Part shown: piece after piece, positions 3,100 to 56,737 of the stretch
How positions within the stretch are numbered: the first letter of the stretch is position 1
Layout of the letters: the number at the start of each line of letters is the position of its first letter
NCBI GenBank assembly: GCA_902589095.1
Contig: CACIRR010000002.1
Coordinates: 1 to 56,737, forward strand
Length of the DNA: 56,737 nucleotides
Direction: 5' to 3'
DNA from: an uncultured Alphaproteobacteria bacterium
GTDB taxonomy: Bacteria; Pseudomonadota; Alphaproteobacteria; HIMB59; GCA-002718135
The notes under the pieces: model-generated
What the model was told of the DNA's origin: nothing
The model's input: the letters and a program-made list of their open reading frames with translations, nothing else
Database searches by the model: none
Program-made: the position numbers and the translations under genes

Positions 3100-3195
3100 T
3101 TTGAGAAATCTCTAGTTTTCTATCTTAAAATTATATTTATTGAGTTTTACTTTTATAAATTATACGTTAAGAGCATTCTTAAAAGGAGATAATTT

Positions 3196-3381: not shown

Positions 3382-3383
3382 TT

Positions 3384-18474: not shown

Positions 18475-18485
18475 ATATTAACGAA

Positions 18486-20024: not shown

Positions 20025-20026
20025 AT

Positions 20027-21587: not shown

Positions 21588-21686
21588 ATTTATAAGTGCT
21601 AAGTAATGATTATTTTGGAATTTTCAATTAGTATGCATTCTGTGACCTATAAATTGATTTTTATGAATATTAATACTTTTTAACTA

Positions 21687-22076
21687 ATGGAAAAATTTAG
21701 AGTTTATTATGAAGACACAGATGCATCTGGAAGAGTTTATCATGCAAATTATCTGAAATATTTAGAGAGAGGAAGATCAAATTTGATCTATCAATCGAAG
21801 TATAATCATCAAGAATTATTAAAAAAATTTAATATTATTTTTGTAGTTAAAAATTTAAACATCAATTATTTAAGACCAGCTTTTTTTGAAGATATTCTAG
21901 AAGTACAAACCTCTATAAATCAATTAAGTAGAGTTAAATTGAATTTTAATCAAAAAATATTTAGAAATACTGAATTACTTGTTGATGCTGAAGTAATTGT
22001 TATACCAGTTAATATAGAGGGTAAAATAATAAGATTAAATGAAGAGCTTTTTTCTTTTTTGAAAACAATTAGCTAA
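21687..22076 (+). CDS. ybgC: YbgC/4HBT-family acyl-CoA thioesterase
   Basis: 129 aa. The VYYEDTDASGRVYHANYLKYLERGR hotdog-fold catalytic-Asp motif is present. Confidence 0.75.
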   Translation: MEKFRVYYEDTDASGRVYHANYLKYLERGRSNLIYQSKYNHQELLKKFNIIFVVKNLNINYLRPAFFEDILEVQTSINQLSRVKLNFNQKIFRNTELLVDAEVIVIPVNIEGKIIRLNEELFSFLKTIS

Positions 22077-22816
22077 TCATCTTTATTATTTTCACTATCT
22101 TTGATTGATCGTCCCCAGCAAATTATCGCAAAATAGATAGATGTTACAACCCAAAGAATAAAAATAATAGTACTATCAATCATAAAAATTTTAGAAGAGG
22201 GAGTTGTTACAAGTTTTAGAGTTGTGGCAGACCAAATAATTGTAAAAAAAATTGTTAAGTTTCTTAGCTCTTTGACTCTTAAAGGATGTACAAATTTTAT
22301 TGGTACAAATGTTAAGATTAAACAAATAATTATAACAGCAACATTTATGTATTCATTGGTGCCAAGGATAAAAAAATATAAAACAACTATATTCCATACT
22401 GCAGGGAAACCTCTAAAATAATAATCATCAGTTTTCATTCGAAGATTTGCAAAAGTATACAAAGAAACCAAGAAAATTGCTGCAGGTAAAATAATTTCTA
22501 ATATACCAGGGACCATTCCAAACCAATAAATCATTAAGCTTGGAATGATGACGTAATTTAAATAATCAATTACACTATCTAATATTGTTCCATCTATATT
22601 AGGAGTTTGCTCTGAAACATTAACTTTCCTTGCTAATGTGCCATCTAGTCCATCAATTAATAGTGCCAAGCCTAGCCATAAAAATGCGCCTACGGCATCA
22701 CTATTTAAAATGGCAATTATGGCCAAAAATCCTAACACTGCGCCAGATCCTGTAAATCCATGCACAGCCCATGCCGCTATTTTGTTCTTATTAATTTTAT
22801 TAAGGTTAAGAAACAT
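22073..22816 (-). CDS. pcs: CDP-alcohol phosphatidyltransferase, phosphatidylcholine-synthase-like
   Basis: DGLDGTLAR-x12-G-x3-D-x3-D (DGLDGTLARKVNVSEQTPNIDGTILDSVID). The x12 spacing matches the Pcs variant of the motif as I recall it. 247 aa, polytopic. Confidence 0.6.
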   Translation of the reverse strand: MFLNLNKINKNKIAAWAVHGFTGSGAVLGFLAIIAILNSDAVGAFLWLGLALLIDGLDGTLARKVNVSEQTPNIDGTILDSVIDYLNYVIIPSLMIYWFGMVPGILEIILPAAIFLVSLYTFANLRMKTDDYYFRGFPAVWNIVVLYFFILGTNEYINVAVIIICLILTFVPIKFVHPLRVKELRNLTIFFTIIWSATTLKLVTTPSSKIFMIDSTIIFILWVVTSIYFAIICWGRSIKDSENNKDD

Positions 22817-22894
22817 TACAATTTTATAACATTAAATTTACTTATTGTTTCAATATTTTATATTTATTTGAAGAATCAAATGATATTTTGAAGT

Positions 22895-23731
22895 ATGAAT
22901 ATTGTTACTGATGTTGTTTTGCCCATTGCTCTAGCATTTATTATGTTTTCTTTGGGTTTAGGTTTGTCTATTTCTGATTTTGCAAGAATATTTATAAAAC
23001 CAAAGGAATTTTTTGTGGGCTTTGTTTCTCAACTAATAATATTGCCTATTGTTGCATTAATTCTAGTTTTTATATGGCCTTTATCTCCTGAAATAGCAAT
23101 CGGCGTAATGATACTAGCAGCAGCTCCAGGTGGTGCTACTTCAAACATTTTAACTTCCTTTGCCAAAGGTGATGTAGCACTTTCTATATCTCTTACAGCA
23201 GTCATTAGTATACTAAGTGTTATTACTATTCCCTTAATATTAGGAATTTCATTATCTTTACTAGGTACAAATCTTGCAAATGAAGGAATATCACTAATGG
23301 ATATTGCCTTAAAAATGTTTTTAATTGTAACTGTTCCAGTGCTTATTGGTATGTTGCTGAAAAATATTCTTAGTGCTTTTGAAGGTATTGCAAAAAAAAT
23401 ATCTACCGGTTTGTTTTTTTTAGTTCTTCTAGGTGCAGTTTTAGCTGAAAGAGAAAATGTAATCACGTATTTTGCTCAAGCAGGATTAATTACACTTATT
23501 TTAAATATCGTTATGATGTTAATTGCTTTTTATCTTAGTAAGTCCCTTATCTCTAACATTTCACAGCAAAGAGCCATAACACTTGAATGTGGATTGCAAA
23601 ATGGCACACTAGCTATTGTCGTTGCAAATGTTTTCTTTGATGGAGGTGCGTATTTAATTCCAGCAGCAACGTATAGTTTAATTATGTATGCTACATCCCT
23701 TCCATATATTTATTATCTAAGAAGAAACTAA
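22895..23731 (+). CDS. bile acid:sodium symporter (BASS) family transporter
   Basis: 278 aa, about 8-9 TM, with an AAAPGGATSN-type motif. Confidence 0.7.
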   Translation: MNIVTDVVLPIALAFIMFSLGLGLSISDFARIFIKPKEFFVGFVSQLIILPIVALILVFIWPLSPEIAIGVMILAAAPGGATSNILTSFAKGDVALSISLTAVISILSVITIPLILGISLSLLGTNLANEGISLMDIALKMFLIVTVPVLIGMLLKNILSAFEGIAKKISTGLFFLVLLGAVLAERENVITYFAQAGLITLILNIVMMLIAFYLSKSLISNISQQRAITLECGLQNGTLAIVVANVFFDGGAYLIPAATYSLIMYATSLPYIYYLRRN

Positions 23732-24511
23732 TACTGGAAAAGTTTTAGAGTCCAAAGGAGCTCCATTTTTAAATTTAATATTTGGGAATGGGGGAGACAT
23801 CTCACCTTTTCTTTTTATGTAAGTAGCATCATCACCAGTAAACCTTATTGAAAATGCTCTACGCCTTTTTTTAGATTTATTTTCTGGCGCGCCATGAACG
23901 GTAGAAAAATTAAAAACTACTGCATCACCTGGACTCACTTTCCAACTTTTAATTTTGAATTTTTTTCTGTTATTTTCGATGTTAGGGATATGTTCAAATT
24001 CTCCATCTTTTTGCTCGTAACTATGGCCAAAAAATTTAGTTGGTAAAAATTGCTTATTCCATTTATTTGAACCCAGAACAAATTCAGGAGATGAAGATTT
24101 ACTAACTTCATCTAATGGAATCCAAAAACTACAATTATCTCTACCATTTACGCAGTAATAAGATTGATCTTGATGCCAAGGTGTTCGTTTTTTTGAGCCT
24201 ACTTCTTTTATAAGAACATGTTCATGAAATAAATTAACTTTATTTGATTGCATTAATACTTTTGCAATAAAGGCGATGTTTGAATTAAAAATAAAATTTT
24301 TGTATTCACTTATTCGACTCCAATTACAATAATCATCATAGAAAAGTTCCTTTTTATTGTTTTTTTCATAAACACATTTGTATTTACTTGGTTTATCAAA
24401 ATTCTTTTTTAATCCTTTTTTAAGAATTGATATCCACTTATCGCTAATTATGTCCCTTAAAATTACAACACCGTTTTTATTGTAATTATTGATTATTGAT
24501 TTATTAATCAC
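23717..24511 (-). CDS. phytanoyl-CoA dioxygenase (PhyH) family Fe(II)/2-oxoglutarate oxygenase
   Basis: WHQDQSYY (His-x-Asp facial triad) and a distal TVHGAPEN histidine. 264 aa. Confidence 0.7.
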   Translation of the reverse strand: MINKSIINNYNKNGVVILRDIISDKWISILKKGLKKNFDKPSKYKCVYEKNNKKELFYDDYCNWSRISEYKNFIFNSNIAFIAKVLMQSNKVNLFHEHVLIKEVGSKKRTPWHQDQSYYCVNGRDNCSFWIPLDEVSKSSSPEFVLGSNKWNKQFLPTKFFGHSYEQKDGEFEHIPNIENNRKKFKIKSWKVSPGDAVVFNFSTVHGAPENKSKKRRRAFSIRFTGDDATYIKRKGEMSPPFPNIKFKNGAPLDSKTFPVLVSS

Positions 24512-44547: not shown

Positions 44548-45207
44548 ATGAAAACAGCTATTCTTTTTGGGGCGACGGGGTTGGTAGGTAGTCATTTATT
44601 AAATTTATTAGTTAATAGTAATGAGTATGATAAAATTAAAATATTTTCTCGAAAAGAAATCAAAATAAGTAATCCAAAAATTGAAACATTTATTATTGAT
44701 TTCAAGGAACTAGAAAAAAGTAAGGGTGATATTACTGGCGATGATTGTTTTTTCGTAATTGGAACAACCAGAAGAGTCACTCCAAAAAAAAAAGATTACA
44801 TTGATGTTGAATTAAATTTACCAATAAAAATTGCTAAGATTGCCAAAAATAATAATATTAAATCTTTTATTTATGTTTCATCTGGTGGCGCTAATGCAAA
44901 TAGCAGAAATCTCTATTTGCAAAATAAAGGTAAAGCAGAAAAAGAAATAATAAATTTGTCATTTGATTTTACAGCAATTATTCAACCTTCACTTTTATTA
45001 GGAAATAGAAAAGAAAATAGAGTAGGGGAGAGAATAGCTAAATCTATTTTTAAAAGTTTATCTTTTATTTTTGTTGGTAAGCTTAGAGCATTTAAAGCTA
45101 TACATGCTAACAATGTTGCTAAAGCAATTATGCATATCACAAAAAATCAACTAAAGGATTTGTTTTTTACTTCAGATAAACTCGAGGATTTAAGTAGAAT
45201 AAAGTAA
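44548..45207 (+). CDS. NAD(P)H-binding atypical SDR-like oxidoreductase
   Basis: ILFGATGLVGSHL Rossmann motif. 219 aa. Confidence 0.65.
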   Translation: MKTAILFGATGLVGSHLLNLLVNSNEYDKIKIFSRKEIKISNPKIETFIIDFKELEKSKGDITGDDCFFVIGTTRRVTPKKKDYIDVELNLPIKIAKIAKNNNIKSFIYVSSGGANANSRNLYLQNKGKAEKEIINLSFDFTAIIQPSLLLGNRKENRVGERIAKSIFKSLSFIFVGKLRAFKAIHANNVAKAIMHITKNQLKDLFFTSDKLEDLSRIK

Positions 45208-45210: not shown

Positions 45211-45864
45211 TTATTTAAAAATTGTAAGGGTATGATCAAGCCCCTTTAATATATGTTTCTCTAGCGTTTCTGTTGCTAATTTTGTATCTCTTTTTAAGGC
45301 TGCTTCAAATATAATTTTATGCTCTTCTTCAGCTTCTTTGCCTCTATATTCTGTTACTGCCATTTGATAGCGAATATATTTATCATATAAAATAGAGTGA
45401 AGGTTTAATAAATTTTGAGATCTGCAATTAGACACTAATGCTAAATGAAAACCCCAATCATATTTTTTCCATTCTTCTCTATTTTTTTTATAGTCTTTTT
45501 GGGTTTCTTTTTCTAGAAGATGCAATTTATGATGTGAAGCAACTAAATTTCCTTCCCAATCTGTATCTCCATTTTCAATAGATAACTCTAAAGCGTGACA
45601 TTCTAATAATACTCTTAGGTTTGCAATTTCAATTAAATCATCCTGAGAAAAAGAGTTTACAAAAAATCCTCTTTGTTCTTCAGCTTTAACAAAGCCTTCA
45701 CTAGCTAATCTGTTTAATGTTTCTCTAATTGTTGATAGGCTAGCATTATAACTATTTTTTAAGTTATCTAATTTTAATTTTATTGATGGTTTTAATTTTC
45801 CAAATATTATATCTTTTTTAATAACGTCGTATGTTATTGAACTTATTGTATTTTTTTCATTCAT
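45211..45864 (-). CDS. GntR family transcriptional regulator, FCD-type C-terminal domain
   Basis: Winged HTH (LSTIRETLNRLASEGFVKAEEQRGFFV) and an all-helical His-rich C-terminal domain. Confidence 0.8.
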   Translation of the reverse strand: MNEKNTISSITYDVIKKDIIFGKLKPSIKLKLDNLKNSYNASLSTIRETLNRLASEGFVKAEEQRGFFVNSFSQDDLIEIANLRVLLECHALELSIENGDTDWEGNLVASHHKLHLLEKETQKDYKKNREEWKKYDWGFHLALVSNCRSQNLLNLHSILYDKYIRYQMAVTEYRGKEAEEEHKIIFEAALKRDTKLATETLEKHILKGLDHTLTIFK

Positions 45865-46084
45865 AATAAAATATCATATATTTATTACATTATATAATAA
45901 TCTAAATAAAATAATAAATTATTCTATTTTAAATTTTTCTAATTTTGTTTGCATTTCTGTCAAAATATCCCTGCTTTTTCTGAGTCATAATGTAGTTATT
46001 GCTCATTTAGTATATTATTATCATAAATCCGGTGAAATAATTCAAATAGATAAAATTTAAATATTATTAATACTTTTTATTAAA

Positions 46085-48028
46085 TTAATCTCTTAATATT
46101 ATAATGTTGATAGAGTGTGCAGGTATGATTACGTAATTACCTTTAGTCTTTAGTATGTTTCTTTTAATTCTTACTTTATTAATATTTTTATAATCATTCA
46201 TATCTGTTTTATTACTTCCATTTATCGTAAATGTTTTTGTTATTTTAAGGTTATTGTTTAATTTTACACTTACACTTTTATTTTCTGATTTATTTACAAT
46301 TGATATGCAGTATGTTTCATTATTTTTTGTAACTGCTGCATCAATCATTTTATTATTTTTATAAATTGGTTGTTTACCTAATTTTGGAGAAATAAAATTT
46401 TCTGTTTTAATTTTTGATTCTAAAATGACCCCCTTATGATACTTCGTGAATAGTTCTAACACTAATGTTGTAGGCGTTTTCCATATTTTTTTACGATCAA
46501 TTCTATAATTTCCCATCACATTTATAAGATGATATATTCCTGTATTTCTAATTATATCACCTCTATTAATACATGCGTGAAGAAGTGAAGCTGCATATAT
46601 TGCATCAGCTATATTATAATTTTCTATAAAATAGGGTGTATGAGCTTCAACATATGTATTCCATTCATCAAATGCTATTTTAATATCCTTATTTGTATTT
46701 TTTCTTACTTCATTAATGGTTTGATCCAGCATTAATTCTACTTCAGTTGCAGCTGCGACAGTGGGGAGATATCTAGTTTTATAGTTAGGAGGGTTTTTAT
46801 CTTTTTCTGTTCTTATTGAATAATAGTGAACACTTAATTCATCTATTTTTTCTCTGATATTTTTTAGAACTTGTTCATTCCAATGACCAAAATGATCTGA
46901 GCATGCACCTACTGCTATAAAACGTAATTTGTTGTTAATCTTCTTTATGGCTTTTACAAATTGATCATATTTTTTAGCATAAGTAACTGGATCAGTATGC
47001 CCAATCTGCCAACCACCAAACATTTCATTTCCAATGAATATGGTTTTTAAATAATAGGGTTTTTTTCTTCCATTTTTAATTCTCTTTTTGCCATATGTAG
47101 TTCTATGATCGCCAGTTATGTATTCTATCCAATTTTGAGCATCTTCAATTGATCCATCCCCTGTATTAATAGTAATCATAGGTTCGCTTCCTATATATTC
47201 ACACCATTTAAAAAATTCATCAGTGCCCACATCATTATATTCCCATTGATACCAAGCATGATCATAGTAAGGCATCCGATAATCTTTATTTCCAATTGCA
47301 TTTTCCCAATGATAACCAGATAAAAAATTTCCACCAGGCCACCTTATGTAACTAGGTGTCCATTCTTTTATCATTTCAGTAATATCTTTTCTGAAACCAA
47401 AAATTGTATCTTTTGGCATTAATGAACAATTAGCAATATACACAGTGCCCGACTGAATAGTAATTTTAATTTTTTTATTAGAAGAAAATGATTTAAATTT
47501 TATTTTTTTTTTAAATTTATTCCAATTATTTTTAGAAACAAATGAAAATTTATTTTCACCAATTTCTATAAATATTTTTTGATTTTCTCCTTTTGTAATA
47601 ATGCTAAAATCAAATTCATCCTTAGGATCAACAATATATAAATTTTGTTGAATTCCTCTTTTTGTCTTATTTTTTTCTCTAATAGTAATTTGCTGAGATT
47701 GTTTGGCACTTCCATACCTGCTGGTTAGTTCATTACCTTTGACAATGTAATTACTATTTGAATGGGCGTACATGACATATTTTGCTGATGCATTGTAACC
47801 TTTCCAAGGCTGAATAATGCCAAAATCTAGATGATCATGCTCAAGACCATTGTTCCACATTAATTTATCAGGTCCACAAAATTTTCTATTTTGAATTACT
47901 TCAGCCCATATTCCATTTCTATAAATAGCATCACCAATATGCTCAAGATTTGTTCCAAACATATGTTTAGATAAATTGGAAATTATATTTTTTTTGGAAA
48001 AATTAATTTCCGAAATTTTATTAGTCAT
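46085..48028 (-). CDS. GH51-like alpha-L-arabinofuranosidase family glycoside hydrolase (no signal peptide)
   Basis: IRWPGGNFLSGYHWENAIG, acid/base context IGNEMFGGWQIGH, nucleophile context IAFDEWNTY, and a C-terminal beta-sandwich region. It overlaps the upstream ABC ATPase gene by 8 nt. Confidence 0.75.
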   Translation of the reverse strand: MTNKISEINFSKKNIISNLSKHMFGTNLEHIGDAIYRNGIWAEVIQNRKFCGPDKLMWNNGLEHDHLDFGIIQPWKGYNASAKYVMYAHSNSNYIVKGNELTSRYGSAKQSQQITIREKNKTKRGIQQNLYIVDPKDEFDFSIITKGENQKIFIEIGENKFSFVSKNNWNKFKKKIKFKSFSSNKKIKITIQSGTVYIANCSLMPKDTIFGFRKDITEMIKEWTPSYIRWPGGNFLSGYHWENAIGNKDYRMPYYDHAWYQWEYNDVGTDEFFKWCEYIGSEPMITINTGDGSIEDAQNWIEYITGDHRTTYGKKRIKNGRKKPYYLKTIFIGNEMFGGWQIGHTDPVTYAKKYDQFVKAIKKINNKLRFIAVGACSDHFGHWNEQVLKNIREKIDELSVHYYSIRTEKDKNPPNYKTRYLPTVAAATEVELMLDQTINEVRKNTNKDIKIAFDEWNTYVEAHTPYFIENYNIADAIYAASLLHACINRGDIIRNTGIYHLINVMGNYRIDRKKIWKTPTTLVLELFTKYHKGVILESKIKTENFISPKLGKQPIYKNNKMIDAAVTKNNETYCISIVNKSENKSVSVKLNNNLKITKTFTINGSNKTDMNDYKNINKVRIKRNILKTKGNYVIIPAHSINIIILRD

Positions 48029-49076
48029 TCATTCCCCAAATTTTATCTTTTGGTAGATGAACGAAGATTTGGTCATCTTCTTTCATATTATCTATACCAA
48101 CTGATTGGAGAGAGCATTCTAAATGTACATTATTCACATTAATTTTATAGCGCGTATGTGTACCTGAGAATATTACAGATGTAATTTTTCCTTGATAGGA
48201 GTTGTGGTCAAATTCATTATTTTTTGAAATTTTAATATTTTCTGGTCTAATTGTAAGAAATAATTTTTTATTAAGATCACGAATATTATCACCTTGATAT
48301 TCACAAAAACCAATTTCACTTTGTATTTTGTTATCTACAATATCTGCATTGATAAAATTTACACCTCCAAAAAATTTTGCTGCCTTGATATTTTTTGGTT
48401 TTTCATAATAGTTTTTGGGAGATGTGAAATTTTGTAACTCTCCATCAAATATTAGAGCAATCTTATCAGCGAGTAAAACTGCTTCCTCCTGATCATGTGT
48501 AACAAATATTGTTGTAACATTTAATTTTTGTTGAATAGTTAAAATAAGTTCTCTCATTTCATCTCGTAAATGGGCATCTAGGTTGCTTAACGGCTCATCT
48601 AATAAAAGCAATCGTGGACTAGCAATAAGTGCTCTTGCAAGCGCTACACGTTGTTGTTGTCCCCCAGATAATTGTTTTGGTTTTCTTAAGCCAATATCTG
48701 GTAATTTAACTAAATCTAACATTTCTTTTACTCTTTCATCGATTATGCTTTTATTTACACCTTTCATTTTAAGAGCAAATCCTACATTCTCATTTACATT
48801 CATATAAGGAAATAAAAGATAATTCTGGAATACCATTACCACACCTCTTTTTTCTGTAGGTATAGGTAAAAGAGATTCATTATCTAGAGTGATGTTACCA
48901 TTATCAGGTTGAAATAACCCTGTGATCATTTTTAATATTGTTGTTTTTCCGCAACCTGATGGTCCAAGAAAAGCTACTAATTGACCACTATTAATATCTA
49001 AATTTACATTATTAACCGCAGGCCGATCCATTCCTTGAAAATTTTTAACTAAATTTTCTATTTTTAAATCACTCAT
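48021..49076 (-). CDS. ABC importer ATP-binding protein (PotA/MalK-like with C-terminal TOBE-like domain)
   Basis: GPSGCGKTT, LSGGQQQRVALARAL, LLLDEPLSNLD. 351 aa. Confidence 0.85.
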   Translation of the reverse strand: MSDLKIENLVKNFQGMDRPAVNNVNLDINSGQLVAFLGPSGCGKTTILKMITGLFQPDNGNITLDNESLLPIPTEKRGVVMVFQNYLLFPYMNVNENVGFALKMKGVNKSIIDERVKEMLDLVKLPDIGLRKPKQLSGGQQQRVALARALIASPRLLLLDEPLSNLDAHLRDEMRELILTIQQKLNVTTIFVTHDQEEAVLLADKIALIFDGELQNFTSPKNYYEKPKNIKAAKFFGGVNFINADIVDNKIQSEIGFCEYQGDNIRDLNKKLFLTIRPENIKISKNNEFDHNSYQGKITSVIFSGTHTRYKINVNNVHLECSLQSVGIDNMKEDDQIFVHLPKDKIWGMND

Positions 49077-49087
49077 TCATACCTCAT

Positions 49088-49951
49088 TTAAATTTTACCA
49101 AATCCACTTGTTGCTCCTGATTGACCTGATACAAATTTAGAAGTGAAAACTAATATCAAGATTGCTGGAAAAATAAATATTATTGATATTGCTGCTGTTA
49201 AAGCAGGGTTACCAGAAGATGCAGTAGAAAAAACTAAAAGAGGAAGGGTCATTACTTTTCCTGCTCCTATTAAGAAGGTGAGTAGATACTGACTCCAAGA
49301 TACTAAAAAAGCAAAAAGAGCTGCCACGACCATCCCTGGCGCTATTGCAGGTAGTGTAATTTGAAAAAAAGTAGTAGTTTTATTTGCACCTAATGTTCTT
49401 GCCTGATGTTCAAAATCTGGATTATAGTTTGCAAATATTCCTGTCATGGTAAGTACTACATAAGGCATAATTGGTACTAAATGTACTAAACATACTCCAA
49501 AAAAACTTCCCGAGAAACCAATTGAAATAAAATTAATATTTAAACCTAAAACAAATGCAATAGGAGGAAGAATAGTAGGTGAGACCATGATGAATATTAT
49601 TAATTTTTTAAATCTAAAATTTAATAAGCCTAAAACCCTTGCTGCTGGTAATGCGATGATTATAGATACAATTGTTACTAAAATACCAATTGTTAAACTA
49701 TTAACTAAAGCTTTAATAACAGTTGGATTTGATGCCCATAGATCTAGAAAACCTTCAAAAGTTCTTTGTCCAGGTTTAGGGATAAGCTTTAATCTCACCC
49801 ATGCCTGTAAACTTAATTCTTTTGGAATAACTTGCGGATAAAACCATCTAAAAGAAAAGGCATTAATAAAAAAAGCAATTAAGGGTAAAATTAATATTAG
49901 TGCGCCCAAATAAATGGAATAAATATTAATTCTTTTTAAATTATTATTCAT
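49088..49951 (-). CDS. ABC importer permease (binding-protein-dependent type)
   Basis: 6 TM segments and an EAA-loop-like motif (EHQARTLGANKTTTFFQITLPAIAPG). Confidence 0.8.
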   Translation of the reverse strand: MNNNLKRINIYSIYLGALILILPLIAFFINAFSFRWFYPQVIPKELSLQAWVRLKLIPKPGQRTFEGFLDLWASNPTVIKALVNSLTIGILVTIVSIIIALPAARVLGLLNFRFKKLIIFIMVSPTILPPIAFVLGLNINFISIGFSGSFFGVCLVHLVPIMPYVVLTMTGIFANYNPDFEHQARTLGANKTTTFFQITLPAIAPGMVVAALFAFLVSWSQYLLTFLIGAGKVMTLPLLVFSTASSGNPALTAAISIIFIFPAILILVFTSKFVSGQSGATSGFGKI

Positions 49952-50826
49952 TAATCTTTCCTTATTTTAGCTTGCGTTAACCAAAAATAAAAAACTACTA
50001 GTATCATTACAATTAATGCAATTATAATGCTCAACGCCATACCTTCACTTCTTGCATTCAAGTCAGGATTTAAGAAAAATTCAAAAGCCATCACAGGTAG
50101 CATCTGAGGATAAATAACGCCGAGTAAAGCAGGCACTTCATATGCACCAAAACTGAAAGCAAATACGATAATTGAAGCGGAAAACAAATTTGGCATTACT
50201 AGTGGTAGAATGACATATCTAAATCTTTGCCATCTATTAGCGCCCAGACTTTGTGCTAATTCTTCAAAATTCTCTCCTAATGATTGTAATACAGACATTA
50301 AAATGATGAAGAAAAAAGCAGCTTCTTTCCAAATATATGCAAGAATAATTCCAAAACCATATTTATCTCTAACAAGAACAGGAAAATCACCTGGACTAGA
50401 AATCATACCTATCTGAGCTGCTAGTCTTGCCAACAAACCACTTTGAGAAAAAACAAAAATCATACCAACTGCAACTACTAAGTGCGGCATAGGTAGATTT
50501 AATGAATAAATAAAATTACATAATGTTTTACCAACAAAAGTTTTTCTAATTGCTAAAGCTCCAAATAGAGCAAATACTGCAGCTAAAAATGTGCTAGCAA
50601 AACTCACCCATAAGTTAAGAGCTAATCCCGACCAAAATAACTTTGCATATCTTTCTGAAAACATAACATTGTAGTATGCAGAAAAATTAAGTTCATATTT
50701 GCCAATAGCTGGTTGATATCCTAAACTTTGAAGAAAGCCATAAAAGATACCACCAAAAAAAAGAGTAATAATTATAAGAAGAGGCGGGGTAAGAGATAAA
50801 ACAATTTTCAATCTTTCCCCGCCCAT
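49951..50826 (-). CDS. ABC importer permease (binding-protein-dependent type)
   Basis: 6 TM segments and an EAA-loop-like motif (EELAQSLGANRWQRFRYVILPLVMP). Confidence 0.8.
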   Translation of the reverse strand: MGGERLKIVLSLTPPLLIIITLFFGGIFYGFLQSLGYQPAIGKYELNFSAYYNVMFSERYAKLFWSGLALNLWVSFASTFLAAVFALFGALAIRKTFVGKTLCNFIYSLNLPMPHLVVAVGMIFVFSQSGLLARLAAQIGMISSPGDFPVLVRDKYGFGIILAYIWKEAAFFFIILMSVLQSLGENFEELAQSLGANRWQRFRYVILPLVMPNLFSASIIVFAFSFGAYEVPALLGVIYPQMLPVMAFEFFLNPDLNARSEGMALSIIIALIVMILVVFYFWLTQAKIRKD

Positions 50827-50834
50827 TTTAGATC

Positions 50835-52082
50835 TTATTTAAGAAGTACGTTTGCTTCCCAATCAGCTTCTATCAAATCTTGGTACTCAGCAGCGATATC
50901 TGAAACCAAAGCTTTCGCTAAAATGTTTTGATCTTCAGCAGCATCTCCAAGATTGTTTTGTGCATCTTCAATAGCAGCTTTTCCAGCAGCATCAGTTACT
51001 TTAGCAGTGCTGATACCCCATCCACAACAAAAACCATTTGCAGGTTGAACTTGTGCAGCTTGAAGTTCAGGCTCTAATACTAAATTAGCATAGACTAGAG
51101 CAGCAGCTTTATTAGGCGCGTTATATGGTATTGCCCAATAATTGAAGTCACCGATCATATTTTCATAGAACGCAAAAGCTCTTGAAGTAGGAGGTGTAGT
51201 TCCTGCAGTGTTTGTTGGTCCAGCACCTCTTGGTGATTGTGTGAAATCTAGATCAACTTCACCATTTGCAAATAAACTATGCATTTCCGCATTGTCTTTT
51301 GGATATGTTTCACCACTTCTCCATAAATCCTTCTCCCAAGAATTTAAAAGCTCCCAAACTTTTGGTGCCCATTTATCATATAATGCTTGATTGAATGGAC
51401 CTACCCATTGCTCCTGACCTCCACTTAATTCAAAGAAAATTTGTTTTACAAATCGTGTACCAACAAATCCACCTTTCCCAGGTCTAATATAAGTAAATCT
51501 TCCTGGGTTGCTTGCAATCCAGTCACTTAATTCAGCATAACTTCTCGGCATATCATCATAATTATTTCTAGCCGAGTCATACATGAAGTGGAATTGAGCA
51601 CTTGACCAAGGGCTCTCCATTCCATCTACAGGTCTACCGAAGTCAAGATTTACAGCTGGGTTATCCCAAGCAACAAATTCACTATTTGGAAGACCAGCAG
51701 CAAAAGGACCATACAATAAGTTAGCTTGTTTAAGTGTCCAGAAATTTTCACCATTAATCCAAATTAAATCAATGCTTCCACCATCGCCAGTTACTCCAGC
51801 TTCTTTTTCACTGAGTACTTGGTTAACAGCATCAACAGTTCCAGCTAAAGGAACTCTATTCAAGGTGATGTTATATTTTTCCTTTAATGGAACACCATAG
51901 AAATCATCAACAAAACCATTGATAGCATCAGATCCACCCCACATATAGACGTTTACTTGTCCACCATCAGCTGCTTTTAAAACATCATCCCAAGAACCAA
52001 AACCTGGAGCTGTTTCAGCAACAACTAATTTTGAAAAAAATAAACTTGTTAATGTAAAGGCGATAATTTTTAAATATTTCAT
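50835..52082 (-). CDS. periplasmic ABC substrate-binding protein (tentatively YnjB/COG4134-like)
   Basis: Signal peptide MKYLKIIAFTLTSLFFSKLVVA. The VNVYMWGGSDAINGFV...SIDLIWINGENF pattern recalls YnjB-type SBPs. The ATG at 52082 is preceded by GGAGGTAAA, and the track start at 52106 adds an unlikely extension. Confidence 0.75.
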   Translation of the reverse strand: MKYLKIIAFTLTSLFFSKLVVAETAPGFGSWDDVLKAADGGQVNVYMWGGSDAINGFVDDFYGVPLKEKYNITLNRVPLAGTVDAVNQVLSEKEAGVTGDGGSIDLIWINGENFWTLKQANLLYGPFAAGLPNSEFVAWDNPAVNLDFGRPVDGMESPWSSAQFHFMYDSARNNYDDMPRSYAELSDWIASNPGRFTYIRPGKGGFVGTRFVKQIFFELSGGQEQWVGPFNQALYDKWAPKVWELLNSWEKDLWRSGETYPKDNAEMHSLFANGEVDLDFTQSPRGAGPTNTAGTTPPTSRAFAFYENMIGDFNYWAIPYNAPNKAAALVYANLVLEPELQAAQVQPANGFCCGWGISTAKVTDAAGKAAIEDAQNNLGDAAEDQNILAKALVSDIAAEYQDLIEADWEANVLLK

Positions 52083-52102
52083 TTTACCTCCAATTAAAAA
52101 CA

Positions 52103-53554
52103 TCAAATAAGTAAATTATTTGATTTGTTATCCTTTGGTGAAATATAATCTACCAAAGGAATCTCTTCTACAAGCTTTAAATCATTCCAAGCTGCAAATT
52201 CTAATAACTCTTTACTATAATCGCCTTGACCAACTGCATAATGATGTTCATGACCTATAATGTTTAGTGTATTTATCAAGTTTTCTGCCGATATTGGATC
52301 TCTGTTAAGTTGTGTCTCTTTGAACCATCCTCTTGTTCCATCAAAACCTTTATTTGTATGTTCAAATATTTCAGAATTTAAAATTAAAATCCTTTCAGCG
52401 TTATTTCCAAGATAAGTTGTTGTTGATGATTGTGGTTTAAATACTTGATCTCCTGCAACACCATATTTTTTTTCAGTTTTTCTTCCTAGTGTTGAATGAT
52501 CCACCCAGCTAATACCATCTTCATTTGCAAAATGTCTAGGAGAAACGCCGCAATGCCACATTAATACAGCGTTTGCTTTTTTATCAAAAGTAGCAAGATC
52601 AAGTAGAGTTGATGATTTTTTTGTATTAGAAATATAATTGAGGAGGAGCATGCTTATTGAACCCTGAACATCCCCTTCACAAGAAACTGCAATTCCATCT
52701 TCACTACCCATCCAGCCGTATGCCATACATGGAGCTATGTCATAAAGTTCTTGAAACTGAGACCAACACTGTACAGCTAGTGAGTCCCAATCATTTTCTT
52801 CCCTCATTTGTTTTAGAGCAAAATACACTCTAGTTACTCTATTAAAAGAGTCATCATTAGAAACATGAATAGAACTAGCAGCAGCTTTAATTTTTTTAAT
52901 TTCTTCGTCTATTAATGATTGTTTAAAATTTTTTGCTTTATCTATTAGTTCTTTAATTGTTGTCTCTTCTATGCTTGTGCCTATATTTGTTTTGATTTTC
53001 GCATTATCAACAATCATATTATCAAAACCAGGAGATATTCCTCCAATTAACCCCAATTTTGATTGTTTTAATTTTTTTAGAGCAATTAAAGATCGTAATG
53101 TTATTAAAAATTTATTTTTAAATTCATCGGTATCTGCATAATTATAGAACCATTTTGTTTTAATTTTTTTCTCTGAAAGTAGTTTTTTTATAATTCCTAA
53201 ATAATGACTTGTAGAAACTAAAGAATGTAATTTTACATCACCCTCTGTTTCTTGATCTGGTACCGCCCATATTCCTATTTTATTTACAATATTACAAAGA
53301 GGGTAAAGTTGTTCACCTGAGCTGCATGAACTAGTTTGCAAAATTAGAAAATCTATTTTTTTATTAAAAAATCTCTCAGCTTCTTCCGAGTCTTCTCTAG
53401 AAAAAATTGTTTTATGGAATGATAATAATTCAACATCATAATTTTTTAAAATTAACTTAAGGTGCTCTTCAGAATTTTTTCTTACATTTTGTTCTTCAGC
53501 ATAATAAGGACTTATTGATGTCGCTACAAATCCTATACGTAATACTTCTTTCAT
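52103..53554 (-). CDS. L-fucose/L-arabinose isomerase family (COG2407-like) protein
   Basis: 483 aa. The N-terminal Rossmann-like start (LRIGFVATSISPYY) and the central VSCEGDVQGSISMLLL segment recall FucI-family proteins. This is a family-level call only. Confidence 0.5.
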   Translation of the reverse strand: MKEVLRIGFVATSISPYYAEEQNVRKNSEEHLKLILKNYDVELLSFHKTIFSREDSEEAERFFNKKIDFLILQTSSCSSGEQLYPLCNIVNKIGIWAVPDQETEGDVKLHSLVSTSHYLGIIKKLLSEKKIKTKWFYNYADTDEFKNKFLITLRSLIALKKLKQSKLGLIGGISPGFDNMIVDNAKIKTNIGTSIEETTIKELIDKAKNFKQSLIDEEIKKIKAAASSIHVSNDDSFNRVTRVYFALKQMREENDWDSLAVQCWSQFQELYDIAPCMAYGWMGSEDGIAVSCEGDVQGSISMLLLNYISNTKKSSTLLDLATFDKKANAVLMWHCGVSPRHFANEDGISWVDHSTLGRKTEKKYGVAGDQVFKPQSSTTTYLGNNAERILILNSEIFEHTNKGFDGTRGWFKETQLNRDPISAENLINTLNIIGHEHHYAVGQGDYSKELLEFAAWNDLKLVEEIPLVDYISPKDNKSNNLLI

Positions 53555-53566
53555 TTGTTTTATTAT

Positions 53567-53687
53567 TAAATGTTATAATGTTTATAATGTCAATTATTAT
53601 ATATTGACTTTAATATTATAAATGTATTGAAATGATATTTAAATTTTAAATAAAAATTATACTAAATGTTATAACAACTAAATGTTA
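53567..53687. promoter_or_regulatory. candidate operator repeats in divergent promoter region
   Basis: An exact 12-mer TAAATGTTATAA occurs at 53567-53578 and 53663-53674. A perfect palindrome TGTTATAACA lies at 53667-53676. CTAAATGTTA repeats at 53662-53671 and 53678-53687. An inverted repeat GTCAAT-N8-ATTGAC lies at 53589-53608. Confidence 0.35.
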
Positions 53688-54656
53688 GATAAAGATAAAT
53701 TAGACTGGATATATAATAAATTATTTACAATTCGTTTTTTTGAAGAACGAATTAAAAAAATAGCAAAAGAAAAAAGTGTTCCAGGTTATTTGCATACTTG
53801 TATAGGTTCAGAAGCAATTTGTGTTGGCGTCATGGCAGCTCTTAATAAAGATGATTGGATATCTAGTACTTATAGAAACCACGGACATGCTATAGCAAAA
53901 GATTGTAATTTGAATCAAATTACCTCTGAAATATACGGTCGCTCTACTGGAATTTGTAAAGGTAGAGGTGGCAGTATGCACATCAGTGATTTTGATAGGG
54001 GAATGTTAGGTTCTTTTGGCATTGTTGCTGCAGGTCCACCAGTTGTATTGGGTGCTGCTCTTCAAGAAAAAATTAATAATGGAAGTAAAAATTCAGTTTC
54101 TTTTTTTGGAGATGGCGCAATTCATAATGGAGCATTTCATGAAGCTGCTGGCTTAGCTAAATTATGGAACATACCCATGCTATTTGTTTGTGAAAATAAT
54201 GGTTATGCTGAAGCAACTGCAACAGATTGGCATTTAAATACTAAAGAATTGTCTGACATTTCTAAAGCTTACGACATGGTAGCATATAGAGGAAATGGGA
54301 ATGACGTTTTTGAAGTTTTTAATTTAACTAACAAAGCATTAGAAGAGAGTAGAAACAAACAAACACCAATTTTTTTAGAATTTAAAAATTATCGTTTTTC
54401 AGGACAGTATGAAGGTGACACCCAATTATATCAGCCACAAGAAGAAATAGAAAATGCAAAAAAAAATGATCCAATAAAATTAGCAATTGATAATGCTAAA
54501 AATCATAATTTAACTAAAGATGATATTGAGACATATAAAAAAAATGCTTTGGATGCAGTAAACTCTGCATTTGATTTCGCTGATACGCAACCATGGCCAA
54601 AAGGAGAAGACGCATTACAAGAAGTTTATGTAAATTATCCAAAGGAGGTAAATTAA
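53682..54656 (+). CDS. TPP-dependent 2-oxoacid/acetoin dehydrogenase E1 component, alpha subunit
   Basis: TPP-binding motif GDGAIHNGAFHEAAGLAKLWNIPMLFVCENNGYA, plus YRNHGH. 324 aa. Confidence 0.85.
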   Translation: MLDKDKLDWIYNKLFTIRFFEERIKKIAKEKSVPGYLHTCIGSEAICVGVMAALNKDDWISSTYRNHGHAIAKDCNLNQITSEIYGRSTGICKGRGGSMHISDFDRGMLGSFGIVAAGPPVVLGAALQEKINNGSKNSVSFFGDGAIHNGAFHEAAGLAKLWNIPMLFVCENNGYAEATATDWHLNTKELSDISKAYDMVAYRGNGNDVFEVFNLTNKALEESRNKQTPIFLEFKNYRFSGQYEGDTQLYQPQEEIENAKKNDPIKLAIDNAKNHNLTKDDIETYKKNALDAVNSAFDFADTQPWPKGEDALQEVYVNYPKEVN

Positions 54657-55673
54657 TTGCCCATCAAAACAGTTAAAGAAGCTATTAATGATGCATTAGT
54701 TCAATCATTTGAAAATGATAAGAATGTTATTCTAATGGGAGAGGATATTGCTGGTGGTAAAGGCAGAGAGCAGTATCAAGGGACTCAAGACGCCTGGGGT
54801 GGTCCTTTTGGTGTAACACAGGGATTGTTTACAAAATTTGGAGGGGAGCGAGTTAGAGATACTACTATTGCTGAAGCAGGTTTTTTTGGCGCAGCTGTTG
54901 GAGCGGCAATGACAGGTTTAAGACCAATTGTTGAACTTATGTATGTTGATTTTGCTGGTGTATGTTTTGATCAAATGATGAATCAAGCTGCAAAAGTTAG
55001 ATACATGTTTGGGGGTAAACAAAAAGTTCCAATGGTTGTGAGAACTGTTGTTGGGGCAGGTTTTAGAGCAGGAAGTGAGCATTCACAAACTCTTTATAGC
55101 TTATATACACATATTCCTGGTTTAAAAGTTGTAGCACCTTATGATGCTTATGATGCCAAAGGATTATTGTTATCATCTATTCAAGATGATGATCCAGTAA
55201 TTTTTATGGAACATAAAAGGTTATACATGACTTCCTGTGAGGTGCCTGATGATTTAAAACCAATACCTCTTGGAAAAGGAAAAATAAGAAAAAATGGAAG
55301 CGATGTCACTATAATTGCCATACAAAGAATGAATCTTTTTGCAGAAGAAGCAGCAAAAGAACTAGAAAATAATAACATTAGTTGTGAAATAATTGATCCA
55401 AGATCTTACTCACCTCTTGATGAAGATTTAATTTATACTTCAGTCAAAAAAACAGGTAGGGTTATAATTGTAGATGAGTCTAACCCTAAATGTTCTCTTG
55501 CATCTGAAATTTCATCGTTAATATCTGAAAATTGTTTTTCTGATCTAAAGTCTGGAGTAATTAAAATTACTGCACCTCACACGCCTGTTCCATTTAGCCC
55601 GCCAATGGAAGACTTCTATATACCTTCATCAAAAAAGATTGGAGATGCAGCTAAGGAATTGCTTAATGCTTAG
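54657..55673 (+). CDS. TPP-dependent 2-oxoacid/acetoin dehydrogenase E1 component, beta subunit
   Basis: Transketolase-like pyrimidine-binding domain (RVRDTTIAEAGFFGAAVGAAMTGLRPIVE) and a C-terminal domain. TTG start follows an AAGGAGG SD. Confidence 0.85.
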   Translation: MPIKTVKEAINDALVQSFENDKNVILMGEDIAGGKGREQYQGTQDAWGGPFGVTQGLFTKFGGERVRDTTIAEAGFFGAAVGAAMTGLRPIVELMYVDFAGVCFDQMMNQAAKVRYMFGGKQKVPMVVRTVVGAGFRAGSEHSQTLYSLYTHIPGLKVVAPYDAYDAKGLLLSSIQDDDPVIFMEHKRLYMTSCEVPDDLKPIPLGKGKIRKNGSDVTIIAIQRMNLFAEEAAKELENNNISCEIIDPRSYSPLDEDLIYTSVKKTGRVIIVDESNPKCSLASEISSLISENCFSDLKSGVIKITAPHTPVPFSPPMEDFYIPSSKKIGDAAKELLNA

Positions 55674-56382
55674 ACAAGCTTCAACTAAATATCAAAACGT
55701 CTATTCTGTTATAAAAAATAATATTGCTTCAAATAAATGGCCTGTTGGAAAAATTATACCTTCTGAGCATGAACTCGTTGATTACTTTAGGGTAAGCAGA
55801 ATAACAATTCGTTCAGCTCTAAATATGTTAGAAAATGATGGCTTGGTAACTCGAAAAAGAGGCAAAGGTACAATTGTAAAAAATACAACTAATAATGACA
55901 ACAACTGCTTTCAATCTTTAACTCAAAAAATTTTACAAAATGGTGATATTCCATCATCAGAGATTTTAGAATTTAAAAAAATAACAAACAAAGATCATAC
56001 AAAATATTTCACTAACGATACAACCTTATATTTTATCAAGCGCTTAAGAAGTGTTAATGAAAAACCTTACTTAGTTAGTAATGCTTATATTTCTTACGAT
56101 TTATGTTTTGGGTTAAATGAAAATTATTTTACACAAAAAGGTGATAATCAATCTTTGATTCATGTACTAACAAATAATTTTAAAATTAATTTTATTGAAA
56201 ATTCTCAATTTGTATGTGCGAAAGAGTTATCAAATTCTGATTCTAAAGTATTAAAAAAAGATCCTGGCACACCATGCCTTTCACAAGATTGTTTATTGTT
56301 TGATCATGATAATCGGTTAGTTCTTGTTGATCAAAATATCACTTTTAATACACTAAGTTTTAATTCCAGAGCCATTTCATGA
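55667..56382 (+). CDS. GntR family transcriptional regulator, HutC/UTRA-type
   Basis: Winged HTH (LVDYFRVSRITIRSALNMLENDGLVTRKRGKGTIV) plus a UTRA-like C-terminal half. I prefer the ATG at 55667 (7-nt overlap with the E1 beta stop). Confidence 0.8.
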
Positions 56383-56737
56383 CTGTACCAAATCATATTT
56401 TAGATAAATTTCCCAAACTATCCTCCGGACATCTACTTAAGAATCTTGAGTTACCTGTAGGAAAAAATAAGATTATATTAGACACTGATACTGCAAATGA
56501 GATTGACGATCAGTTTGCTTTAGCTTGGGCTCTTTTATCATCTGATAAAATAGATTTATTAGGAGTTACAGCTGAGCCTTACTCTTTTCAGCATCATAAA
56601 GATGAGCTTTTGGAGGCCTATGATATTATTTCAAATAATAAAAAAATTGATAAATCAAATGAAGAGTTAATTGCATCTTATCATAGTTGGGTAAACGGAT
56701 TGATAGAGTCTAAAACTCATCCTAATGATATTTATTT
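56379..56737 (+). CDS. inosine-uridine-preferring nucleoside hydrolase fold protein (3' end outside the window)
   Basis: N-terminal metal/ribose-binding motif DTDTANEIDDQFALAWALL (DxDxxxDD). It has an ATGA overlap with the regulator gene. Confidence 0.7.
   Translation, partial: MTVPNHILDKFPKLSSGHLLKNLELPVGKNKIILDTDTANEIDDQFALAWALLSSDKIDLLGVTAEPYSFQHHKDELLEAYDIISNNKKIDKSNEELIASYHSWVNGLIESKTHPNDIY

Follow-up and report, generated by a model that had tools for sequence, protein, structure and literature searches.

A conserved, movable gene island with a candidate furanoside pathway in SAR11-type marine bacteria

We analysed positions 45211–56737 of a 56,737-nucleotide stretch of DNA from an uncultured alphaproteobacterium (contig CACIRR010000002.1; this whole stretch is called the window hereafter). 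An original prediction, made from the sequence alone, had placed here a candidate uncharacterised system for glycoside catabolism that consists of two divergent operons and is bracketed by two GntR regulators. From its own genes and from those of its relatives, we conclude that the block is the visible, promoter-proximal two-thirds of a conserved, movable island of 16–17 genes. The window and its closest relatives are referred to as SAR11-type, an assignment that rests on a G+C content of 29% and on best matches among marine alphaproteobacterial single-cell genomes.

A scan for open reading frames (ORFs) in this block reproduced the ten-ORF layout, the gene families and the tight junctions described before. 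The two operons are separated by a divergent promoter region of 127 bp (53555–53681, read from the sequence). Next to it on the minus strand lies the gene of an isomerase-like protein with an AraA fold (52103–53554), which stays below all Pfam thresholds and was recognised by Foldseek on an AlphaFold model. It is followed by a YnjB-subfamily solute-binding protein (SBP) that carries a signal peptide (50835–52106; Pfam SBP_bac_8, NCBIfam PRK11622), two ATP-binding cassette (ABC) permeases (49951–50826 and 49088–49951; both Pfam BPD_transp_1), a PotA/PhnT/MalK-like ABC ATPase with a TOBE domain (48021–49076; Pfam ABC_tran and TOBE_2) and a glycosidase resembling glycoside hydrolase family 51 (GH51; 46085–48028; Pfam Alpha-L-AF_C and ASD1_dom, E 1e-16). 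The SBP and isomerase genes overlap by 4 nt, the permease genes by 1 nt, and the GH51 and ATPase genes by 8 nt. A spacer of 220 nt (45865–46084), of the length reported before, separates the glycosidase gene from that of an FCD-type GntR regulator, also on the minus strand (45211–45864; Pfam FCD and GntR, E 1e-16). The plus-strand operon opens with the thiamine diphosphate (TPP)-dependent E1 alpha subunit of an enzyme of the pyruvate dehydrogenase (PDH)/acetoin dehydrogenase type (53682–54656; Pfam E1_dh, E 6e-62), directly abutted by E1 beta (54657–55673; Pfam Transket_pyr, E 3e-43, and Transketolase_C, E 5e-35); the pair is called E1ab below. A HutC-type GntR regulator (55639/55666–56382; Pfam GntR and UTRA) then overlaps via ATGA with the gene of a protein of the nucleoside-hydrolase fold (IUNH-like; 56379–56737; Pfam IU_nuc_hydro and Sde182_NH-like), of which the N-terminal 119 amino acids are encoded before it runs off the window end.

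The absence of kinase, aldolase, epimerase and E2/E3 genes, which had been pointed out earlier, is true of the window, but for the first three merely because the window ends inside the operon. The context beyond 56737 was read from two relatives, a 19-kb metagenome contig (L001) and an 86-kb contig of a single-cell genome (L002), whose isomerase copies are 98% and 82% identical to that of the window; exact matches to the HutC and E1 alpha proteins of the window were searched for and not found. In both relatives the plus strand continues in the order IUNH-like protein, epimerase, DhaL, DhaK, LacD, YihU-like reductase and MR_MLE, so that DhaLK, a LacD-family aldolase and a ketose 3-epimerase follow immediately beyond the window end. 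The full-length IUNH-like protein has 368 amino acids in both and carries a Pfam IU_nuc_hydro match in L001. The epimerase is an AP_endonuc_2 protein with D-psicose 3-epimerase as its best NCBIfam match (217 bits), and the LacD-family class I aldolase passes the cutoff of NCBIfam PRK12858 (217 bits, cutoff 184). The reductase is a beta-hydroxyacid dehydrogenase with sulfolactaldehyde 3-reductase YihU as its best match (279 bits, cutoff 348). MR_MLE is an enolase-superfamily protein resembling acid-sugar dehydratases, with an arabinonate dehydratase as its best NCBIfam match. In L001 and L002, the 10 kb to either side contained no Pfam lipoyl, 2-oxoacid_dh or Pyr_redox gene, and the same gene order without E2/E3 recurs in about 25 SAR11-type loci. 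The normal E2/E3 pair that might have been expected downstream is thus absent from L001, L002 and the other loci. A conventional linked dehydrogenase complex was rejected for E1ab on the same ground.

To see where else these genes occur together, one genome per GTDB species was scanned with two narrow peptide patterns, a design that under-counts distant carriers. The scan returned 40 loci, which were then searched with all 18 island proteins by tblastn. Full synteny is kept in about 25 AT-rich genomes of marine Alphaproteobacteria obtained from single cells or metagenomes. Eleven loci belong to Rhizobiaceae, Hyphomicrobiales, Bauldia, Dinoroseobacter, Rhodophyticola, Rhodospirillaceae and unclassified Alphaproteobacteria, and these have a one-strand operon with the order isomerase, SBP, two permeases, GH51, ATPase, (epimerase), DhaL, DhaK and LacD, as far as the contigs reach. 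Within 10 kb of this core, tblastn detected neither E1ab nor the reductase in any of the 11, and the IUNH-like gene in Bauldia (L032) only. Copies from these non-SAR11 Alphaproteobacteria are 66–74% identical to the window in the SBP, 45–49% in the isomerase and 36–39% in GH51, and the SBP is thus far more conserved than the enzymes across Rhizobiales, Rhodobacterales and Rhodospirillales; the permeases are 88–95% identical among SAR11-type loci and 59–64% identical to those of other Alphaproteobacteria. The conserved functional unit is therefore the importer with the furanosidase, the isomerase, DhaKL and LacD, and the surrounding modules vary by lineage. Conserved synteny in 40 loci supports the claim of one linked, uncharacterised system for glycoside catabolism. 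The expected co-occurrence of its parts was found across several alphaproteobacterial orders for GH51, the YnjB-type ABC system and the isomerase, whereas E1ab accompanies this core in SAR11-type genomes only. For the IUNH-like gene the expectation failed: outside SAR11-type genomes and Bauldia it is missing from the alphaproteobacterial loci, and it recurs in variants from Chloroflexota.

The chloroflexotal version (L028, L043 and L045) joins isomerase, DhaK and DhaL to an SCP-x-type thiolase and its DUF35 partner, and is without GH51, epimerase and E1ab. L028 and L045 additionally have LacD, an IUNH-like protein, a PNP_UDP_1 phosphorylase and a family-III CoA-transferase; L045 further has an ADP-ribosyl-glycohydrolase and a GH42 protein, and a GH127 gene lies nearby in L043. 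More distant isomerase homologues (31–33% identity) occur in other sugar clusters of Clostridia. One of them (33% identity), on a metagenome-assembled genome of Clostridiaceae (L040, 2289–21416), is surrounded by three sulfatases, a GH4 protein, a ROK kinase, a GatZ-like protein, a DegT aminotransferase and CBM96/S-layer proteins, and an E1 alpha gene stands at the edge of the locus. Variation is also seen among the SAR11-type islands. Two independent genomes (L022 and L024) have no aldolase in the island and keep the rest, the aldolase-less stretch of L022 being at 1605–3508. In L019 and L020 (2818–4287) a 489-amino-acid GabD/SSADH-like aldehyde dehydrogenase takes the place of LacD, and the reductase stays. 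Some contigs with the fully syntenic island at 76–85% identity (L009, L019–L021 and L037) are labelled Methanobacteriota, Gammaproteobacteria or Piscirickettsiaceae, which probably reflects mis-binning or mislabelling. A search of plasmids for the isomerase returned only relatives with 24–31% identity, and a homologue search with E1 alpha was filled by SAR11-type sequences of at least 79% identity, so that no distant context was gained.

The island is mobile within SAR11-type genomes. Alignment of the loci to the window by blastn showed that in six genomes (L002, L008, L012, L013, L015 and L026) the island flanks match window positions 21694–23860 and 17695–21587. There, the whole 16-kb cluster sits exactly at the counterpart of the spacer of about 106 bp at 21587–21694, an alternative island site that is empty in the window. 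This spacer separates a hexapeptide-repeat (CysE-like) gene from a small 4HBT thioesterase-like gene. The islands of the window, L003, L005 and L014 lie beside the genes at 40–45 kb, and that of L022 lies beside the genes at 37–42 kb, a variant of this second site. The occupation of at least two chromosomal sites, together with the empty copy of one of them in the window, bears out the suggestion of a strain-variable accessory trait. Searches turned up no tRNA gene in the window, no integrase at the island boundaries and no flanking repeats at the junctions examined. Hundreds of variants with 75–98% identity are present in marine metagenomes, Tara included, which indicates that the island is common in the ocean; one E1 alpha variant occurs on 154 contigs.

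The two GntR genes do not bracket the system as such. By tblastn, the FCD-type gene was detected in the window and L003 only; it is absent in L005 and L014, where the island occupies the same site. The HutC-type gene is restricted to the window, L001 and L003, and L001 ends before the position of the FCD-type gene. In the other SAR11-type loci E1 beta is followed directly by the IUNH-like gene. Both regulator genes are thus local additions of the window's own lineage. The best NCBIfam match of the FCD-type regulator is CsiR, far under the cutoff. A 219-amino-acid ORF of the NAD(P)-binding type (44548–45207) lies between the FCD-type gene and the conserved flank, and both are missing in L005 and L014. 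In the divergent promoter, a perfect palindrome GTCAAT-N8-ATTGAC (53589–53608) overlaps a TTGACA box and is flanked by repeated TTATAACAT motifs. L001, L003 and L022 have the palindrome and the motifs as well, and L005 and L012 have them in part; the promoter motif is kept even where the island has no regulator gene (L022, and partly L005 and L012). A generic scan for promoters and terminators gave no enrichment over shuffled sequences.

The importer is of an unusual kind for a sugar. The SBP belongs to the YnjB subfamily PRK11622 (380 bits, cutoff 203), and its translation probably begins at the ATG at 52103. The best NCBIfam matches of the permeases are of the PotC, ModB, CysT and PhnV types, not classical sugar permeases, and those of the ATPase are PhnT2 and PotA. 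A sequence search of the PDB gave no relative of the SBP, and its single-sequence AlphaFold model reached a pLDDT of 35. The G+C content of the window peaks over the SBP and permease genes (0.35–0.37 at 49000–53000, against about 0.29), and the Alphaproteobacteria whose SBP is 66–74% identical are of high G+C; lateral transfer could account for this, as could a transporter under strong constraint.

The assignment of the glycosidase to GH51, a family with a (beta/alpha)8 catalytic domain and a C-terminal beta-sandwich, is supported by Alpha-L-AF_C, the Pfam model of that sandwich (61.9 bits, cutoff 27), by ASD1_dom (37.6 bits) and by its similarity to GH51 arabinofuranosidases in the PDB (E 5e-66 over residues 210–623). 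The glutamates of the acid/base (IGNEMF) and nucleophile (FDEWN) motifs align with those of 4atw, 3ug3 and 1pz3 and are invariant in all 14 cluster copies. In the numbering of GsAbfA, the invariant residues are E29, R69, N74, N174, E175, H244, Y246 and E294, six of them additional to the two glutamates, and we take them to line the −1 subsite. At the ninth position, that of Q351, SAR11-type copies have His and the other Alphaproteobacteria Asn. The sequence therefore suggests a ring like that of arabinofuranose or galactofuranose as the recognised unit, with one consistent change in the pocket. The enzyme has no signal peptide and is for that reason regarded as cytoplasmic. An insertion of about 165 amino acids (residues ~45–209, window 47402–47896) separates the first barrel strand from the remaining catalytic domain. 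It has no Pfam match and is also present in the alphaproteobacterial copies (650–680 amino acids); the best-matching solved bacterial GH51 enzymes have 482–574 amino acids.

The isomerase is recognisable by its three-domain AraA/FucI fold. Its AlphaFold model (pLDDT 88.9, pTM 0.90) retrieved L-arabinose isomerases as the top Foldseek matches (E 2e-26, TM 0.75–0.79 and about 0.77 for the top match, over the full length), followed by FucI (E 1e-18). By sequence, it stays under the thresholds of AraA_central (17.6, threshold 24) and FucI (18.8, cutoff 775), matches no PDB sequence, and shares 12–13% identity with AraA (hhalign to E. coli AraA, E 0.013). Its only sizeable NCBIfam match is the sulfoquinovose isomerase SftI (150 bits); with a cutoff of 700, orthology to SftI was ruled out. 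Six residues, E293, D295, D319, H334, H437 and H438, are invariant and have an AraA-like spacing. The weak hhalign alignment pairs E293 with the GEGD motif and H334 with the SH motif of AraA; we take E306, E333, H350 and H450 to be the metal-binding and catalytic residues of AraA. The family is small, with 132 clusters at E<1e-30. Based on the model, the protein appears to be an aldose–ketose isomerase of an uncharacterised family with the AraA fold, distant from SftI. Neither this enzyme nor the glycosidase appears to lack catalytic residues, a possibility raised in the original prediction: the GH51 residues are intact and the isomerase has its invariant set of Glu, Asp and His.

For the enzymes encoded beyond the window, the residue evidence is as follows. 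DhaK keeps H56, D109 and the substrate-binding, hemiaminal-forming H218 in alignment with its E. coli counterpart, and the NCBIfam scores lie below the cutoffs (DhaL, TIGR02365, 134 against 138; DhaK, TIGR02363, 311 against 406); the lack of DhaM makes ATP dependence likely. LacD was aligned to 5hjl; neither its Schiff-base Lys, within (I/L)K(I/V/L)E(F/V)P, nor the LSAG and GR motifs of its phosphate site vary among 10 copies. With these phosphate-binding motifs kept, LacD should release dihydroxyacetone phosphate (DHAP) and not dihydroxyacetone, so that the kinase would act before the aldolase. In the PDB, the reductase is closest to E. coli YihU, with 204 bits; the next entry scores 154. The sulfonate pocket of YihU has been defined crystallographically as the Arg123 backbone, Asn174 and Ser178 (PMC8006165). 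The reductase keeps R123, N174 and S178, and the motif KIINNYMSI, in all seven SAR11-type copies checked; this predicted sulfonate pocket is an unexplained hint at a C3 sulfonate. E1 alpha matches NCBIfam PDH_E1_alph_y with 294 bits (cutoff 394), is closest in the PDB to human PDH E1 alpha (166 bits), and has a GDG...NN TPP motif in its translation. E1 beta passes the cutoff of PRK09212 (345 bits, cutoff 321), and its catalytic His is conserved. Compared with Geobacillus PDH E1 beta, it has an insertion of 13 amino acids, GKGREQYQGTQDA, right after GEDI (residues 33–45, window 54753–54791). The N-terminus of the IUNH-like protein has the motif DTDtaneIDDqFA; its 119 amino acids in the window are below the Pfam cutoff. 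The best NCBIfam score of the full protein is 46 bits (RihC cutoff 382), with weak likeness to plant and bacterial nucleoside hydrolases.

From these analyses we propose, with a probability of roughly 55%, that the genes form an accessory catabolic island for a small imported furanoside, which follows an isomerase–kinase–aldolase(–reductase) logic and has a SAR11-type tail. Judging by homology, conserved residues and synteny, the YnjB-type ABC system would import the intact glycoside and the cytoplasmic GH51 enzyme would free the sugar. The −1 subsite, nearly that of a canonical arabinofuranosidase, suggests that this sugar is arabino- or galacto-configured. The AraA-fold enzyme, for which the fold adds to such evidence, would turn the aldose into a 2-ketose, and the enzyme resembling D-psicose/D-tagatose 3-epimerases would adjust C3. 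These proposals of import, cytoplasmic cleavage and aldose–ketose isomerisation agree with those made originally and are consistent with the intact catalytic residues, the fold and the synteny in 40 loci. DhaK/DhaL, taken as the ketose C1 kinase since it is the only kinase in the conserved operon, would then phosphorylate the ketose, a role with a precedent in the erythrulose kinases of the same family. The LacD-family aldolase may split the ketose-1-phosphate into DHAP and a C2–C3 aldehyde. In SAR11-type genomes, the nucleoside-hydrolase-fold protein would be a second hydrolase. The aldehyde may there be reduced by the YihU-like or oxidised by the GabD-like enzyme, the enolase-superfamily dehydratase may make a 2-oxo acid from the matching hydroxy acid, and E1ab may decarboxylate this acid (pyruvate or a close analogue) by means of the housekeeping E2/E3. 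Comparison of the sequences with named families points to a galacto- or arabino-configured sugar: AraA, tagatose/psicose 3-epimerase, tagatose-bisphosphate aldolase and GH51 agree on this, and AraA also converts galactose to tagatose.

Several points weigh against this proposal. DhaKL as a ketose-1-kinase is suggested by gene content. LacD is missing in L022 and L024 and replaced by an aldehyde dehydrogenase in L019 and L020, where the aldolase step may be dispensable, supplied in trans or taken over by E1ab. The sulfonate pocket of the reductase does not fit glycolaldehyde, the product expected from plain arabinose, and a streamlined genome would hardly be expected to keep a second, dedicated PDH-like E1 for plain pyruvate. 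The roles given to the dehydratase and E1ab follow from a chain of logic, and the operon does without E1ab and the reductase in non-SAR11 hosts.

The sulfonate pocket leads to the alternative that survives best, which we nevertheless consider unlikely. It holds that the substrate is a sulfonated furanoside, for example of the 6-deoxy-6-sulfo-galactofuranoside type, or a furanoside with 2,3-dihydroxypropane-1-sulfonate (DHPS) as its aglycone. The C3 fragment would be sulfolactaldehyde, which the YihU-like enzyme would convert to DHPS or the GabD-like dehydrogenase to sulfolactate; the enolase-type enzyme and E1ab would then act on the sulfolactate. Besides the nearness of the reductase to YihU and the whole pocket in 7/7 SAR11-type copies, this would explain why the sole characterised relative of the isomerase is SftI and why the importer is not of the usual sugar types (CUT1/CUT2). 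Structurally, the sulfofructose-phosphate aldolase YihT has its nearest relatives in the LacD family (PMC8006165). Sulfolactaldehyde is known to meet either of two fates, through a reductase of the YihU type or a dehydrogenase of the GabD–SlaB type (PMC12890257); in the island the dehydrogenase stands in for LacD and the reductase stays. SAR11 bacteria and roseobacters are the main marine users of DHPS (PMC11131964). However, GH51 is a clan-A family with, here, an arabinofuranosidase subsite, and the known sulfoquinovosides are alpha-pyranosides cut by GH31 or NAD-dependent enzymes. We know of no natural sulfonated galactofuranose or arabinofuranose sugar and of no furanosyl-DHPS. The scores of the reductase (279, below the YihU cutoff of 348) and of the isomerase (150, below the SftI cutoff of 700) fall short, no locus has a PfkB-type sulfofructose kinase or GH31, and the non-SAR11 operons lack the reductase. 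The bolder idea that marine Alphaproteobacteria, SAR11-type ones included, carry a so far unrecognised sulfoglycolysis-type pathway for a sulfonated furanoside or furanosyl-DHPS conjugate is speculative. Its parts would be a "sulfo-furanosidase" derived from GH51, DhaKL as the ketose-1-kinase, a LacD-type aldolase and a YihU-type sulfolactaldehyde/DHPS enzyme; E1ab, with no E2 gene in the island, would act on the C3 sulfonate or on the desulfonated product. If true, seawater would contain a natural sulfosugar or heteroside that is new, and compounds would enter the marine DHPS cycle by a new route.

Plain use of L-arabinofuranosides or arabino-oligosaccharides, the next in order, is also doubtful. 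Here L-arabinose would be converted to L-ribulose, possibly to L-xylulose, and via the 1-phosphate to DHAP and glycolaldehyde, which in SAR11 would feed glycolate, glyoxylate and glycine. Eight of the nine −1 subsite residues of GH51 are canonical, the fold nearest to the isomerase is that of L-arabinose isomerase, and the dehydratase has an arabinonate dehydratase as its best NCBIfam match. In relatives from Chloroflexota the module is paired with GH42, and close to one locus there is a gene for a GH127 beta-L-arabinofuranosidase. Glycolaldehyde would be attractive for SAR11, which requires glycine, and the analogous route of D-arabinose via FucIKA is established biochemistry. Such a simple substrate leaves much unexplained, namely the sulfonate-pocket reductase, E1ab, the IUNH-like enzyme, the systematic change at Q351 and the YnjB/PotBC-like importer, and free arabinofuranosides are not a known abundant solute of the open ocean.

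The original prediction gave carbon–carbon cleavage or oxidation of the keto-sugar to a TPP-dependent enzyme. With DhaLK and LacD present, the cleavage is in most lineages most simply the task of the aldolase; in the sub-lineages without aldolase, E1ab is the sole enzyme in the island that could cleave such a bond, and to that extent the idea survives. Its full form, in which E1ab without E2 cleaves or transfers a ketol unit of the keto-sugar, as transketolases, acetoin-cleaving enzymes or DXS do, and DhaKL then phosphorylates the triose or tetrulose, seems to us improbable. A TPP-dependent route for sulfoquinovose, the sulfo-TK pathway, does exist (PMC12890257). In keeping with such a role, no locus has E2/E3 within 10 kb, L022 and L024 keep E1ab, isomerase, epimerase and DhaKL and have no aldolase, the unusual insertion of 13 amino acids in E1 beta is close to GEDI, and the clostridiaceal sugar cluster with a distant isomerase homologue has an E1 alpha gene nearby. 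Yet E1 beta passes the cutoff of the PDH E1 beta subfamily and keeps its C-terminal domain, which in canonical E1 beta binds E2, and to our knowledge no E1-type enzyme acts as a ketose lyase. The other alphaproteobacterial hosts manage without E1ab, and most SAR11-type lineages have the aldolase. We therefore rate the cleavage of a keto-sugar by E1ab below an E2-dependent role on a 2-oxo acid.

A still less probable substrate is a 5-substituted riboside or nucleoside, such as 5'-methylthioadenosine, 5'-deoxyadenosine or a ribofuranoside of the arsenosugar type. In a salvage resembling the DHAP shunt, the 5-substituted ribose, once freed by the hydrolase, would pass through isomerase, kinase and aldolase to DHAP and a substituted acetaldehyde, which would then be reduced or oxidised. 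The pathway logic equals that of the known shunt (PMC12632272). The nucleoside-hydrolase-fold gene of the SAR11-type operon suits this substrate, as does the chloroflexotal combination of isomerase, DhaKL and LacD with IUNH, PNP_UDP_1 phosphorylase and ADP-ribosyl glycohydrolase in the absence of GH51. The IUNH-like protein, at 46 bits, is however very remote from characterised nucleosidases. Alphaproteobacteria whose SBP is 66–74% identical use GH51 and usually have no IUNH, and the chloroflexotal SBP (L028) is 34% identical over a partial copy, so its ligand is probably a different one. Finally, the view that two unrelated operons merely adjoin, with E1ab as an ordinary acetoin or pyruvate dehydrogenase E1, is very improbable: the family assignment of E1ab is conventional and its genes are missing from non-SAR11 versions, but E1 alpha, E1 beta, IUNH, epimerase, DhaL and DhaK are co-directional with abutting or overlapping junctions, and in about 25 SAR11-type loci, with identities as low as 75% and at several chromosomal sites, the set keeps together and points away from the isomerase operon.

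The proposed furanoside island is of ecological interest. The usual picture of SAR11 is that of a consumer of very small molecules with hardly any glycoside hydrolases. Here a complete predicted system of importer, cytoplasmic glycosidase and cleavage pathway occurs in many SAR11-type single-cell genomes. The identity of the ligand would name a dissolved organic compound for which several dominant marine lineages compete. Biochemically, the island offers an uncharacterised isomerase family with the AraA fold, DhaK/DhaL probably acting as a ketose-1-kinase, an enzyme resembling sulfolactaldehyde reductase outside a sulfoquinovose context, and an E1 without an E2/E3 gene in the island. All these parts are small soluble proteins and thus directly testable with recombinant proteins. 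In the searchable literature we found no description of the cluster or of a YnjB ligand.

The nearest precedents are known systems that share the logic of the proposed pathway. The FucI–FucK–FucA–FucO pathway of E. coli for L-fucose and D-arabinose has in common with it an isomerase of the FucI/AraA superfamily, a C1 kinase, an aldolase that yields DHAP, and a reductase. The island differs in having DhaK/DhaL instead of an FGGY kinase, a class I LacD-family instead of the class II FucA aldolase, and a beta-hydroxyacid dehydrogenase instead of an iron-dependent alcohol dehydrogenase; it adds the glycosidase, the ABC importer, the 3-epimerase, E1ab and the enolase-type enzyme. The same four-step logic is found in the sulfoglycolytic Embden–Meyerhof–Parnas pathways sulfo-EMP and sulfo-EMP2 (YihS/SqvD, YihV/SqiK, YihT/SqiA and YihU or SlaB). 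Here the likeness extends to the proteins, as the isomerase is distantly homologous to SftI/SqvD, the class I aldolase YihT has its nearest structural relatives in the LacD family (PMC8006165), the reductase is nearest to YihU and has the same residues in its predicted sulfonate pocket, and one sub-lineage has a GabD-like aldehyde dehydrogenase, as in the SlaB-type variants. In contrast, the island has no GH31 sulfoquinovosidase, mutarotase or PfkB kinase, its scores are below the equivalog cutoffs, it has GH51 and a YnjB-type importer, and its E1ab, IUNH-like and enolase-type genes are without counterpart there.

With the DHAP shunt (MtnN/MtnP, MtnK, MtnA and Ald2) the island shares the passage from a furanose freed by a hydrolase via a ketose-1-phosphate to DHAP and an aldehyde, and the chloroflexotal variants carry IUNH and PNP-type genes. 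However, the isomerase would precede the kinase in the island, all protein families differ, and the conserved alphaproteobacterial hydrolase is GH51. The arabinan and arabinofuranoside loci of Gram-positive bacteria (AbfA of GH51 with AraNPQ and AraABD) likewise combine ABC import, a cytoplasmic GH51 enzyme and an isomerase of the AraA fold. Compared with them, the island lacks the AraB ribulokinase and the AraD 4-epimerase and would cleave a ketose-1-phosphate instead of feeding the pentose phosphate pathway; its importer is not of the CUT1 type, and its isomerase has 12–13% identity to AraA. E1ab shares with AcoAB and PdhAB the heterotetramer-type alpha and beta subunits and the TPP motif, and its E1 beta falls within the NCBI subfamily of PDH E1 beta, but it has no linked E2/E3, carries the 13-amino-acid E1 beta insertion and is embedded in a sugar operon. 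Taken together, the comparisons suggest an undescribed combination of enzymes built on a known pathway logic, in which the families of the kinase, aldolase and isomerase, the E1 without linked E2/E3 and the enolase-type enzyme, as well as the importer, differ from those of the known systems.

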